Shown here: positions 9,481 through 41,699 of the stretch, in pieces | Numbering within the stretch: the first letter of the stretch is position 1 | How the letters are laid out: every line of letters begins with the position of its first letter | Assembly (NCBI GenBank): GCA_045650425.1 | Contig: JAZRRD010000019.1 | Location: 1-42,512, forward strand | Source of the DNA: Bacilli bacterium | Lineage (GTDB): Bacteria > Bacillota_I > Bacilli_A > RF39 > UBA660 | Direction: 5' to 3' | DNA: 42,512 nucleotides | Translations under genes and position numbers: made by a program | The notes under the pieces: model-generated | The model's database searches: none | What the model was told of the DNA's origin: nothing | The model's input: the letters and a program-made list of their open reading frames with translations, nothing else

Positions 9481-9696
9481 CTATCTATAATAAGGATTAA
9501 AACCATAATTATAATAATATCCTCCACCATAAGGCGCATATGGAGGATAAATTGGTCTTGGGGCTACATTATATATTGGTCTCGGACGAGTAAGTCCTAT
9601 TGCAGCCCCTCCGGTAACAGCCCCTACTAAAAACGGAAATAAAAATTGTCTATCTTCATACTTATTGTATACATACGGTTCATAATTTCTATACAT
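9481..9696 (-). CDS. Small Tyr/Pro-rich spore-coat-like protein (YmaG-like)
   Basis: FPFLVGAVTGGAAIG core plus Y/P-rich tail; GAAAGGA RBS favours ATG 9696; mother-cell-type promoter upstream. Confidence 0.6.
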   Translation of the reverse strand: MYRNYEPYVYNKYEDRQFLFPFLVGAVTGGAAIGLTRPRPIYNVAPRPIYPPYAPYGGGYYYNYGFNPYYR

Positions 9697-9718
9697 ATAT
9701 GTCATTCCTTTCTGTTAT

Positions 9719-9816: not shown

Positions 9817-11043
9817 TTAAATGTATTTTACTACATAATAATTCTTTTTGCCTTTCTTAACCAACAAAACTTTTCCATCAATTGCTAATTCTTTAGTTAT
9901 TGTAAGTTCTAAATCTTGATATTTTTGATTATTAATACTTATTGCATTTCCTAAAACCATTTCTCTCGCTTCTCTTTTACTAGAACAAATCTTATTATTG
10001 ACTAATAAATCAATGATATTCGTATCTTCAATAATTTCACTATTTGGTACATCTTGAAAATTATTTAAAATTTCATCTGCACTTAACTCTTTTATTTTTT
10101 CTGTAAATAAAGCTTCACTAATTTTTAAAGCATTTTCATATTCTTCTTTTCCATGTATAAATGTTATTACTTCACGCGCTAATGCTTTGTGAGCTTCTCT
10201 CTTTTCTGGAGCTTCTAAATGAAGTTTTTCTAATTCTTCTATTTCTTCTTTACTTAAAAGTGTTAACATTTTTAAATATTTAATAACCATGCTATCTTCA
10301 GAATTTATAAAAAATTGATACATTTGATAAGGTGTAGTTTTACTTTTATCAAGCCAAACATTTCCTGTACCTGATTTACCAAACTTAGTACCATCAGCCT
10401 TAGTTATCAATGGCATTGTAAATGCAAACACTTCATCACCAGTAGTTTTTCTAATAAGCTCTATACCAGTTGTAATATTTCCCCATTGATCACTTCCTGC
10501 CACCTGCATATCTACACCCATATTTTCATGTAAATATTTAAAATCTAATCCCTGAATTAACATATATGAAAATTCTGCATAAGAGATACCAGTTTCCATT
10601 TGCCTTCTTACTAAATCTTTATTTAACATATAATTAACATTAATATATTTACCATAATCTCTTAAAAAATCTATTACAGTTAAATCTTTTACCCAATCAA
10701 AATTATTAACCACTTTATAAGGAAATAATTTTTGAACTTGCGTTTTTAACCCTTCAAAATTTCTAGCAATTATTTCTTTATCAGCTAAATCTCTTTCACC
10801 AGTTCCTCTCGGATCTCCAATTAAACCTGTTGCTCCCCCAACTAAAATAATTGGATTATGTCCTGCATCAGCAAGTCTTTTAGTAATTAGAAAAGAACTA
10901 TAATGACCAATATGTAAACTATCAGCCGTAGGATCTGTTCCAATATAAAAAGTCATTCCTCCATTATTTAATTTTTCTTCTAATTCTGGACTAGATATAT
11001 CTTGGATTAGTCCTCTCCATTTTAATTCTTCAAATAATTTCAT
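9817..11043 (-). CDS. tyrS: Tyrosine--tRNA ligase
   Basis: DPTADSLHIGH, GSDQWGN, KFGKS, C-terminal S4 domain. Confidence 0.97.
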   Translation of the reverse strand: MKLFEELKWRGLIQDISSPELEEKLNNGGMTFYIGTDPTADSLHIGHYSSFLITKRLADAGHNPIILVGGATGLIGDPRGTGERDLADKEIIARNFEGLKTQVQKLFPYKVVNNFDWVKDLTVIDFLRDYGKYINVNYMLNKDLVRRQMETGISYAEFSYMLIQGLDFKYLHENMGVDMQVAGSDQWGNITTGIELIRKTTGDEVFAFTMPLITKADGTKFGKSGTGNVWLDKSKTTPYQMYQFFINSEDSMVIKYLKMLTLLSKEEIEELEKLHLEAPEKREAHKALAREVITFIHGKEEYENALKISEALFTEKIKELSADEILNNFQDVPNSEIIEDTNIIDLLVNNKICSSKREAREMVLGNAISINNQKYQDLELTITKELAIDGKVLLVKKGKKNYYVVKYI

Positions 11044-11056
11044 TTTTCTTCACTCC

Positions 11057-11686
11057 TTATAATATTTCTTTTAATTCACAAACGTCTCTTATTGTTAAAT
11101 ATTCTCTATGTTTCTTGTTATTTACATAAATTGGTTCAATCCCCAATTTAGATGGTTCAATTACATCAAAATTTAAATTATCGCCTATCATCATACATTC
11201 CGTGGGCTTATATTTTCCACAAGCTTTTAAATATGATTTCTTACTAGGTTTCATAACTTCATCACCACAATGTATTTCTTTAAAATATTTCTTTATTCCA
11301 TATTTTTCTAATCTTTTTTCTTGTGATATTTTAAAAGAATTACTTAATATTACTAATTCATATTTTTCAGATAAATATTTCAAAGTATCACAAAGTTCCA
11401 AAGAAGCAACACCCTCAACACATTCTTCTAACCATTTAAAGAATATCTTGATTTTGTCATCATCCATTTTAATCTTAGTAAGCTCAGTTATACATTCTTT
11501 AAATTCATCCATATTCCAACAATCATGTGTTTTTTCATAATATTCAATAGCCATTAAAGTTTTATAAAATTTTATCCAACTTAATTTAATATTATTTTGT
11601 TTTAATAATTTTTTCAACTTTATATAATATGATTTTTTCCATGGCATTAAAGTATCATCGACATCAAAAATCAACCGTTTTTTCAT
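11057..11686 (-). CDS. HAD-IA family hydrolase
   Basis: FDVDDTL, ILSN, KP, MIGDNLNFDV motifs. Confidence 0.9.
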   Translation of the reverse strand: MKKRLIFDVDDTLMPWKKSYYIKLKKLLKQNNIKLSWIKFYKTLMAIEYYEKTHDCWNMDEFKECITELTKIKMDDDKIKIFFKWLEECVEGVASLELCDTLKYLSEKYELVILSNSFKISQEKRLEKYGIKKYFKEIHCGDEVMKPSKKSYLKACGKYKPTECMMIGDNLNFDVIEPSKLGIEPIYVNNKKHREYLTIRDVCELKEIL

Positions 11687-11704
11687 ATTTCAATCTCCAT
11701 AAAC

Positions 11705-11838
11705 AAAAAAAATTCACAAACTAAGGACGAATTATTAATCCGCGGTACCACCTTAATTTATGAATTTATTCATACACTTAATGCTGTAACGTAAGCAAAC
11801 GTTTTAACTCAGGAGTCGTAAATTCCGTCTTCGTTAAA
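11705..11838 (-). promoter_or_regulatory. Tyr T-box riboswitch, minimal architecture
   Basis: AAGGTGGTACCGCG T-box (11754-11741) pairing with CGTCCTT; Stem III tatgaa/ttcata; IIA/B pseudoknot; 36-nt Stem I with TAC specifier at 11820-11818; U8 tract; tyrS downstream. Confidence 0.85.
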
Positions 11839-11848
11839 TATGTTATGT

Positions 11849-11877
11849 ATTATAATTTAAAATTTATTTTTCTTCAA
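11849..11877 (-). promoter_or_regulatory. SigmaA promoter of the T-box/HAD/tyrS transcript
   Basis: TTGAAG-17-TATAAT, about 10 nt upstream of Stem I. Confidence 0.7.
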
Positions 11878-33163: not shown

Positions 33164-33513
33164 AATAATATCTCATAAGCCATGTTCCGTCCTTCATATG
33201 AAGGGACAAATATTTATCTACCATTGCTGGTCCCCTACTTTGTTCAAATTCCATTGTAGAAGCTCCCCTACCAAAATTTGGGTTTCTCGCTCGTGGGGTT
33301 TACCACGTTCCACTATCAAAGTTTCCCTTGATACTCGTCTCTTTGGCACTTTTATATCTAATTTAACCAGTTAAGGTTATTTCAAAGCCGTTAGTTATAA
33401 ACTACCTTAGGTTATTTTTTCCCTAAGCACGAACACTACAATCATCGCAGATTGTGCGAGCATGGACTTTCCTCTACATAATAAATTTATGCAGCATTTG
33501 TCTCAATATTATT
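33164..33513 (-). ncRNA. rnpB: RNase P RNA, type B
   Basis: GAGGAAAGTCCATGCTCGC, GAAAGTGCCA-like AAAAGTGCCA, GGTAAACCCC and GAACATGGCTTAT; P1 aataatat/atattatt; follows gpsB as in Bacilli. Ends are approximate. Confidence 0.93.
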
Positions 33514-41622: not shown

Positions 41623-41699
41623 GGCGATGTAGCTCAGCTGGCTAGAGCACCCGGTTCATACCCGGTAGGTCGTGAGTTCGAATCTCTCCGTCGCTACCA
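41623..41699 (+). tRNA. tRNA-Met(CAU), elongator type
   Basis: GGCGATG/CGTCGCT acceptor stem, TT-CAT-AC loop, GTTCGAATC, encoded CCA; resembles Bacillus elongator tRNA-Met. Confidence 0.93.

Follow-up and report, generated by a model that had tools for sequence, protein, structure and literature searches.

T-box riboswitches sense tRNA, and in the transcriptional members a long Stem I platform catches the tRNA elbow quickly; only the G-C-rich codon of glycine can dispense with Stem II (PMC7583486). The publications behind this literature comparison, namely PMC7583486 (a review), PMC7778990 (TBDB) and PMC11404447, are cited here for excerpts of their text. The leader RNA described below precedes a gene for tyrosine--tRNA ligase (tyrS) and lies on the minus strand of contig JAZRRD010000019.1 (assembly GCA_045650425.1, Bacilli bacterium), of which a stretch of 42,512 nt, positions 1 to 42,512, was analysed as the window. 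A sequence-only reading of this leader had set it against the ultrashort Stem I of actinobacterial ileS leaders, which rely on Stem II; that contrast agrees with the excerpts of the review, and in the leader described here Stem II is deleted. The literature searched, again as excerpted, describes no T-box with an ultrashort Stem I outside the Actinobacteria, a negative that leaves room for supplementary sequence lists or databases that may already include such RNAs, and no T-box devoid of both the platform and Stem II, Firmicute or Mollicute-like leaders included.

We consider it probable, at roughly 0.72, that the leader attenuates transcription as a working tyrosine T-box riboswitch whose decoding domain is minimal, as its sequence and that of its relatives suggest. 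The genome that contains the window (G000; labels of the type G, C and L with a number are our own for genomes, contigs and loci) comprises 1.33 Mb in 138 contigs and is 94.7% complete.

Architecture of the leader

The elements of the leader and its promoter are the following.

11849-11877, minus strand: sigma-70-type promoter with 10 of 12 consensus matches; -35 TTGAAG at 11877-11872, 17-nt spacer, -10 TATAAT at 11854-11849
11803-11838, minus strand: ultrashort Stem I of 36 nt, UUUAAC-GAAGA-C-GGA-AUUUACGAC-UCC-UGA-GUUAAA, from the sequence and the Rfam alignment
11818-11820, minus strand: specifier codon UAC (Tyr) in the apical loop, followed by the purine G11817 and located upstream of tyrS
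11782-11802, minus strand: Stem IIA/B pseudoknot, AACGU-UUGCUU-ACGUU-AC-AGCA, directly abutting Stem I and aligning to the Rfam model
11759-11781, minus strand: purine string AAGUG, then Stem III UAUGAA/UUCAUA (6 bp, 11774-11759), from the Rfam alignment; AA comes next (11758-11757)
11723-11758, minus strand: T-box sequence and antiterminator, with A1 AAGG/CCUU, bulge UGGUACC (11750-11744) and A2 GCGGA/UUCGU, the latter with a terminal G.U pair (G11743-U11727)
11701-11770, minus strand: predicted intrinsic terminator, minimum free energy (MFE) fold of -20.8 kcal/mol, U tract 11712-11701

Stem I is composed of a basal helix (UUUAAC/GUUAAA), a kink-turn (K-turn), a helix of 3 bp (GGA/UCC) and a 9-nt apical loop, AUUUACGAC. 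The K-turn, read from the sequence only, consists of a GAA bulge, tandem G.A/A.G pairs and one C.U pair. Its strands GAAGA and UGA align to gaUGA and gGA of the Rfam T-box model RF00230, and the motif is kept in an alignment of 20 leaders from related genomes. The features of a long Stem I (specifier internal loop, S-turn, AG bulge and the distal loop of the elbow platform) are missing. Stem II is not present: IIA follows Stem I without an intervening nucleotide, and the alignment deletes every Stem II position of the model. The sequence-only reading had already described a 36-nt Stem I with a GA K-turn-like motif and UAC in its terminal loop, which we find in both the sequence and the Rfam alignment, and a IIA/B pseudoknot, located at 11802-11782, that abuts Stem I and leaves no room for Stem II.

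The specifier UAC matches the amino acid of the regulated tyrS gene as well as the anticodon GUA of the single tRNA-Tyr in the genome. This tRNA has the anticodon loop C-U-G-U-A-A-A, the discriminator A and an encoded CCA end, and UGGU in the antiterminator bulge is the complement expected from A73 and the encoded CCA. Within the pseudoknot, helix IIA is ACGU/ACGU(U), and the IIA loop UGCU is complementary to AGCA (11785-11782), a pairing read by eye in the window. After the AA that follows Stem III, the T-box sequence UUAAGGUGGUACCGCG is succeeded by the return strands UUCGU and CCUU and then by AGUUUGUGAAU, eight U, G and UUU, ending at 11701. The segment AAUUAAGGUGGUACCGCG aligns to RF00230 at high posterior probability, with the 7-nt bulge UGGNACC between A1 and A2. 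As a whole, the discriminator half holds every feature that the review lists, in the excerpts cited, for aminoacylation sensing (RRRxG, Stem III, AA, UGGUACC and the terminal G.U; PMC7583486), and from these motifs we are fairly confident that this half would be functional.

At gathering thresholds, the only RNAs that an Rfam scan reports in the whole window are an RNase P RNA and a tRNA, and no T-box is among them. When 501 nt were scanned permissively, RF00230 matched 11720-11840 on the minus strand with 66.9 bits (E 2e-14). In this alignment 7 nt stand in for 76 Stem I positions of the model and every Stem II position is deleted; posterior probabilities are high for the K-turn strands, IIA/B, Stem III and the antiterminator. 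The Infernal comparison with the Rfam T-box model, suggested alongside the first description of the leader, thereby recognises it at a sub-gathering score with both deletions visible. As leaders of this kind score below the Rfam gathering level, they would be missed in routine annotation of gut metagenome-assembled genomes (MAGs). Eleven T-box matches at E<=1 are found in the genome; the present one spans 121 nt, the other ten 168-218 nt.

Ten nucleotides separate the -10 TATAAT from the start of Stem I at 11838, and both the coordinates and the strings of the promoter TTGAAG-17-TATAAT, about 10 nt before Stem I on the minus strand, are as first described. The promoter overlaps the end of an upstream open reading frame (ORF) of 154 amino acids (aa), whose stop at 11864 lies inside it. 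Promoter-like hexamers are common in A+T-rich DNA, and in the window such sites are no commoner than in shuffled sequence (5 versus 5.2 expected), which would suit a true transcript that starts far upstream and carries a normal long Stem I that has been missed. The upstream sequence is the 3' end of a protein-coding ORF, however, where the covariance model finds no distal Stem I, and the basal helix and K-turn close Stem I locally, with covariation. Moreover, a -10-like box stands at a constant distance in most of 30 short leaders despite differing sequences farther upstream in the various genomes. This box (at least 5/6 matches to TATAAT) ends 23-28 nt before the codon, which places it 6-10 nt from the basal helix, and a -35 element frequently accompanies it at 16-18 nt; the script chose a nearer spurious box in a few leaders and none for genome G099, where TTGACA-17-TAAACT is readable by eye. 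Given the conserved -10 box and the coding character of the upstream sequence in the window, a far-upstream start with a hidden long Stem I, which the sequence-only reading had named among the circumstances that would undo it, has next to no likelihood.

Short leaders and their codons in related genomes

TyrS is encoded in 60 of 61 genomes of the same family, which consists of small-genome uncultured gut Bacilli. Among the 30 family TyrS loci listed, 22 have a T-box motif on the tyrS strand. In nineteen of these 22, inspection by eye finds an AG bulge and a distal loop on a long Stem I, and four of the nineteen are confirmed by the covariance model (77.7-89.3 bits, 181-187 nt). In two alignments of the long form, Stem I is complete with the specifier region GAA-U-UAC-A, Stem II is deleted and IIA/B is kept. 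The remaining three leaders are short, namely those of the window, of a genome of the same genus and of a genome of another genus, and they have an identical GAAUUUACGACUC. Since the tyrS leaders with a long Stem I are also devoid of Stem II, its absence is the family baseline for tyrS. The claim, made from the window alone, of a minimal T-box class lacking both tRNA-stabilising modules is supported by the Rfam deletions, the recurrence of the form in 36 leaders and a codon that tracks the enzyme, with the qualification that long-form leaders have lost Stem II as well.

From 20 short leaders we built a covariance model (R1), with which 151 family genomes were searched. The best 30 matches of R1 comprise eight long forms, one short Asp leader and 21 short Tyr leaders, of which one is truncated where its contig ends; the short Tyr form hence occurs in at least 21 of the 151 genomes, a lower bound taken from those best 30 matches. 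On 80 loci around the closest TyrS homologues from species-representative genomes, R1 gave five matches at 105-120 bits, the next best scoring 75. The records of these closest TyrS loci are uncultured gut MAGs labelled Bacilli, Mollicutes, Tenericutes, Mycoplasma, Anaeroplasmataceae and 'Acholeplasma sp. CAG:878'. A pattern search allowing one mismatch had hits in 197 of 401 genomes, with similar results for a reversed-pattern control, and was used only to choose loci. Among the 38 loci targeted from its leads, 15 were T-box leaders and 23 were not; the 30 loci listed by the pattern search itself included three leaders (G322, G141 and G012). The resulting set holds 36 short Tyr leaders, 35 of them distinct, and the five from the 80-locus scan may duplicate genomes counted elsewhere. 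Beyond the family, 137 genomes from 26 further families of the class gave no R1 match at E<=1e-13; the model being Tyr-specific and the threshold strict, this means that none was found in the genomes searched and is no proof of absence.

None of the 36 short leaders deviates from the codon UAC or the bulge UGGUACC, which gives the leaders from related genomes, recommended for comparison at the outset, a uniform reading. The apical loop is AUUUACGAC in 17 leaders, AUUUACAAC in 15, ACUUACAAC in three and AUUUACAC in one. The base after UAC is always a purine (G in 17, A in 19), and none of the nine UAC-U or UAC-C pattern matches examined adjoined a T-box. The helix of 3 bp varies (GGA/UCC, GGA/UCU, AGA/UCU, UGG/CCA, AGG/CCU, GAG/CUU, GAA/UUC, UAG/CUA) and mostly remains paired, with a mismatch in two leaders, those of G127 (GGA/CCC) and G015 (AGG/CCG). 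One leader forms an apparent exception with regard to the K-turn, as its GA motif seems to be missing in genome G159 (L128, G159:C10:45029-45145, minus strand). Its sequence, UUGAA-GUUAA-GAGAA-AUUUACAAC-UUCUC-A-UUUCAA, is still accompanied by the loop, pseudoknot, bulge and terminator.

In the alignment of 20 short leaders, 95.0% of cells are paired, ten pairs show changes on both sides, and the covariation score was reached by none of 500 column shuffles. Pairing is complete (100%) in both Stem I helices, the basal one, which has three covarying pairs, and that of 3 bp. A1 and A2 are paired to 100% and 99%, with compensatory changes, and the IIA helix and Stem III to 83.8% and 87.9%. When the 3' partners were slid by 1-3 columns, pairing fell to 39-46%. 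The structure was drawn up manually on the window's leader, itself part of the alignment, and is therefore favoured over the slid versions in percentage paired; the compensatory changes are unaffected by this. UAC is invariant although mean column identity is 75%. For the pseudoknot, a script parsed 31 of 35 leaders, that of the window being among those unparsed. Complementarity of at least 4 nt between the loop and the downstream strand was found in 28 of these 31, with 24 distinct pairings; the margin over shuffles is modest in such A+T-rich RNA (mean 4.58 versus 3.78).

Rfam scans of five family genomes gave further very short T-box matches. One is a short Asp leader (L142/L133, G009:C12:6787-6933, minus strand) with a basal helix, the K-turn GAAGA, 5 bp, the loop AAUGUGACA with the codon GAC, and the bulge UGGC; the gene downstream encodes aspartate--tRNA ligase (574.9 bits). 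The Asp codon stands two positions later in its loop than the Tyr codon, and loop geometry is therefore not exactly the same in all short leaders. Two further leaders, in G023:C42 (loop UGGCA) and G009:C8 (loop GUGGAAU), have the bulge UGGA and precede genes for glycine--tRNA ligase (621 bits). In G000 the discriminators are A (Tyr), G (Asp) and U (Gly), and the corresponding leader bulges read UGGU, UGGC and UGGA.

Of 30 GlyRS loci from the family, 14 carry a T-box motif no more than 300 nt upstream of the gene (L145, L150-L152, L155, L156, L158, L159, L161, L164, L166, L167, L171 and L172), with GGA or GGC in the loops. The distance from K-turn to bulge is only 61-69 nt in 13 of these 14, the leader of G005 having been misparsed and being similar by eye. 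They display the K-turn GCGAUGA, 3-6 bp, a loop of 5-9 nt with U-GGA/GGC-A, and the bulge UGGA. Two of the Gly leaders score 39-46 bits with Rfam. With their length of about 95-103 nt, the Gly leaders are below every T-box aptamer known to us. The window's genome has two GlyRS genes, G000:C55:6441-7805 (minus strand) and G000:C113:4741-6108 (plus strand), whose products are 76% and 59% identical to the G023 enzyme. Any leader before the former is cut off, since the contig ends 108 nt upstream.

On the sequence evidence, the family has ultrashort leaders for at least three amino acids (Tyr, Asp and Gly). The covariation of loop codon and synthetase that had been proposed as a check is thus seen in the pairs UAC-TyrS, GAC-AspRS and GGA/GGC-GlyRS. 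The conservation of UAC, the rule of a following purine, and the matches of codon to enzyme and of bulge to discriminator are hard to explain unless the loop reads the anticodon. The same data bear on the notion of a decaying relic, in which the loop would no longer read the anticodon and the discriminator would sense any uncharged tRNA with A73, or the RNA would act as a constitutive attenuator. Such decay would fit the loss of both known tRNA-stabilising modules, the sub-threshold Rfam score and the reduced genomes of about 1.3 Mb. It is difficult to square with an unchanging UAC amid 75% mean column identity, with the purine after every codon, with a K-turn and two Stem I helices kept through compensatory changes, and with loops that read GAC before AspRS and GGA or GGC before GlyRS, and we regard it as quite improbable.

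Expression platform and proposed mechanism

In the classical model, as given in the review excerpts, the terminator takes its 5' strand from the 3' strands of A1 and A2, and Stem III, with its flanking purines, is needed for binding of the tRNA 3' end (PMC7583486). In the leader of the window, the base of the terminator is predicted to be formed by the loop and 3' half of Stem III plus the linker (about 11767-11755) pairing with 11722-11710, so that A1 and A2 are enclosed. The sequence-only reading does not mention this unusual terminator. The MFE fold keeps A1, the bulge and A2 and has 17 contiguous pairs, including those of A1. A simple terminator scan was negative in the window because it demands at least three G-C pairs.

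The hairpin is directly followed by a run of 4 to 9 U in all 30 short leaders inspected, and 28 of the 30 show the enclosing arrangement, with 9-15 extension pairs (the loci with this terminator are the window, L013, L037, L072-L092 and L116-L131). In four of these 28 (G202, G140, G127 and G165), the downstream strand also displaces the 3' strand of A1; the other two leaders (G322 and G141) have the classical arrangement. Leaving out these six, we aligned the enclosing helix of the remaining 24 and observed 94.3% pairing, five pairs changed on both sides, and a covariation score reached by none of 500 shuffles. Columns 13-70, for instance, hold AU in 16 leaders, GC in 3, CG in 2, UA in 2 and GU in 1, and columns 14-69 hold UA in 18, AU in 3, GC in 2 and CG in 1. 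By eye, an enclosing terminator is also seen in the long-form relatives and in another T-box of the window's own genome (L002); as the long forms share it, it is not tied to a short Stem I. In place of a terminator that excludes the antiterminator, folding predicts a U-tract hairpin that encloses A1 and A2 and competes with Stem III, and we infer that the decision would lie between Stem III and the base of the terminator.

An ultrashort Stem I has so far been described, in the excerpts cited, for translational T-boxes (PMC7583486), and no more than a few nucleotides lie between the hairpin and the Shine-Dalgarno sequence of the first regulated gene; a tRNA that frees the ribosome-binding site, as in actinobacterial ileS leaders, might be envisaged from these two facts. 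Yet GGAG and the ATG are located 3' of the U tract, outside the hairpin, and are not sequestered, the U run follows the hairpin in 30 of 30 short leaders, and the Stem II needed by the actinobacterial class is missing. Translational control is therefore highly improbable here.

We postulate the following course for transcriptional attenuation. Transcription would start within a few nucleotides of the base of Stem I, and the K-turn would aim a very short arm (three non-canonical pairs, 3 bp and the 9-nt loop) at tRNA-Tyr. The loop UAC would pair with the anticodon GUA, as sequence and conservation suggest. The basal helix would stack on the IIA/B pseudoknot to form a rigid spacer that sets the discriminator, consisting of the purine string, Stem III, the UGGUACC bulge and A1/A2 with the terminal G.U, at the acceptor end of the tRNA. 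The ACCA end of uncharged tRNA-Tyr would pair with UGGU, stabilising Stem III and the antiterminator and permitting readthrough into a gene for a HAD hydrolase and into tyrS. If this stabilisation does not occur, the segment before the U tract would, as folding and covariation indicate, invade Stem III, whereupon a long hairpin that encloses A1/A2 and abuts the U tract would terminate transcription. Recognition of the tRNA would depend on two contacts only, with neither an elbow-binding distal Stem I platform nor a Stem II S-turn.

Several observations weigh against a functional T-box of this kind. The RF00230 score of 66.9 is below the gathering score of 93, and the single sequence does not fold significantly better than its shuffles (z -1.48, with 17 of 200 equalling it). 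With the promoter count and the fold energy unremarkable on their own, the case beyond chance rests on the comparison with relatives. According to the review excerpts (PMC7583486), transcriptional T-boxes generally require the long Stem I platform, RNAs with a truncated Stem I and no Stem II bind tRNA barely detectably, and A-U-rich codons need the S-turn of Stem II; from these three statements, the leader should bind tRNA-Tyr poorly. An L7Ae-type K-turn binder (PF01248) was not found in the window's own genome, which is 94.7% complete. In addition, the short form is patchy on the TyrS tree (FastTree, 117 proteins, of which 86 were labelled by regular expression, 20 of them short), where 13 changes are needed and well-supported branches force at least 11 of them.

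The short label is nonetheless clustered on this tree relative to shuffles (mean 18.6 changes; none of 500 as low). Short leaders also precede a divergent type of TyrS, 40% identical (G050 and G099), and all short Tyr leaders share a GGAAUUUACRACUC-like sequence. Patchiness together with this shared sequence suggests one origin followed by possible exchange of leaders among relatives, rather than repeated deletion. A single origin without exchange was discarded, given the 13 changes that the tree demands.

Something must compensate for the lost modules. One candidate, extended pairing of the loop UUUACR with tRNA positions 33-38 (C-U-GUA-A-A), was weakened: miaA is present (211.9 bits), and position 2 of the loop is C in 3 of 36 leaders. 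With miaA present, A37 is probably N6-isopentenyladenosine (i6A), which makes compensation by pairing at A37 and A38 unlikely and is a further point against the leader's function. Another candidate is a display of the codon resembling an anticodon loop, as positions 2-8 of the loop, Y-U-UAC-R-A, would reproduce the pattern of tRNA positions 32-38. Several Gly leaders have loops of exactly 7 nt in this anticodon-loop form (such as C-U-GGC-A-A and U-U-GGC-A-G). Compensation might also come from a basal helix stacked rigidly on the abutting pseudoknot. We tentatively propose a self-sufficient minimal T-box, a model that we consider possible but doubtful. Its apical loop would mimic an anticodon loop (pyrimidine-U-NNN-purine-A; here A[U-U-UAC-R-A]C) and capture the tRNA by loop-loop pairing of the anticodon-anticodon type, the K-turn, basal helix and pseudoknot would serve as a rigid ruler to the acceptor-end sensor, and competition for Stem III would decide termination.

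The compensation could instead be external, the leader working only with a helper specific to the lineage, for instance a protein with affinity for the K-turn arm or for the tRNA, or unusually slow or paused transcription. The barely detectable affinity of truncated Stem I RNAs would call for such help, and ultrashort leaders for three amino acids in one family, with none found in the 137 genomes of other families, would agree with a lineage-specific factor. That absence is weakly supported, however, the search at class level having been Tyr-specific and strict, and no candidate helper was identified, the L7Ae family included. Dependence on a helper is in our estimation rather unlikely.

If the minimal T-box does operate as postulated, both the elbow platform and the Stem II S-turn would be dispensable for transcriptional T-box function, even with an A-U-rich codon. 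A working leader would contradict three rules for T-boxes: that the platform is needed, that a truncated Stem I needs Stem II, and that only the Gly codon spares Stem II. It would represent the smallest natural tRNA-sensing switch for an A-U-rich codon, with about 140 nt from the 5' end to the end of the U tract. The minimal needs of specific tRNA recognition, and the spacing of decoding domain and acceptor domain, would become directly testable, and a compact scaffold for engineered tRNA-responsive switches would be at hand.

Neighbouring genes and comparison with described T-boxes

Downstream of the leader, two genes are predicted to be regulated.

11684-11698, minus strand: Shine-Dalgarno sequence GGAG (11698-11695) and start codon ATG (11686-11684) of the first regulated gene, from the sequence and the ORF list
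11057-11686, minus strand: HAD-IA family hydrolase, 209 aa, first regulated gene (NCBIfam TIGR01549, 55.2 bits, cut-off 23.3)
9817-11043, minus strand: tyrS, tyrosine--tRNA ligase, 408 aa, second regulated gene (NCBIfam TIGR00234, 370.6 bits, cut-off 113.8)

A HAD-IA hydrolase gene lies between the Tyr T-box and tyrS in several genomes (the window, L013, L092, L123, L124 and L138), and from this position the hydrolase would be co-regulated by tyrosine charging. In other genomes the leader adjoins tyrS directly, with no HAD gene in between. Directly 3' of tyrS, an ORF of 74 aa (9481-9705, minus strand), rich in Tyr and Pro (...PIYPPYAPYGGGYYYNYGFNPYYR), is a candidate gene only. Elsewhere in the window are a class B (Bacillota-type) RNase P RNA (33171-33509, minus strand, 277.8 bits) and a tRNA (41623-41696, plus strand, 61 bits), which ARAGORN identifies as tRNA-Met(CAT).

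Compared to canonical class I transcriptional T-boxes, such as that of Bacillus subtilis tyrS (RF00230), the leader has the same basal K-turn, UAC followed by a purine, IIA/B pseudoknot, purine string, Stem III with AA, UGGUACC bulge matching the ACCA end of the tRNA, A1/A2 with terminal G.U, U-tract terminator and downstream aaRS (aminoacyl-tRNA synthetase) gene. It differs from them in having no specifier internal loop or S-turn, AG bulge, distal loop or Stem II, and its codon is placed in a 9-nt apical loop. Whereas the 3' strand of the antiterminator is the 5' strand of the terminator in canonical class I, the terminator of the window encloses the antiterminator and competes with Stem III.

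The leader also resembles the actinobacterial translational ileS T-boxes (Mycobacterium, Nocardia), which, in the excerpts of the review, likewise combine a K-turn with a short codon hairpin, have no elbow platform and keep IIA/B and the discriminator (PMC7583486). Those leaders depend on the S-turn of Stem II, sequester the ribosome-binding site, are specific for Ile and belong to another phylum; the leader of the window, in contrast, has no Stem II, ends in a U-tract hairpin and leaves the Shine-Dalgarno sequence outside. Glycine T-boxes of the glyQS type resemble it in the absence of Stem II and in making only two or three contacts with the tRNA. Unlike glyQS, which has a long Stem I platform, no IIA/B pseudoknot and a G-C-rich codon, the leader is devoid of the platform, keeps the pseudoknot and reads the A-U-rich UAC. 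With the long-Stem-I tyrS leaders of its own family it shares the position in the operon, the absence of Stem II, the pseudoknot, Stem III, the bulge and, by eye, the enclosing terminator. It is set apart from these relatives, which possess an AG bulge, a distal loop and the specifier loop GAA-U-UAC-A, by being about 65 nt shorter, its Rfam match spanning 121 nt versus 181-187 nt in the long forms.

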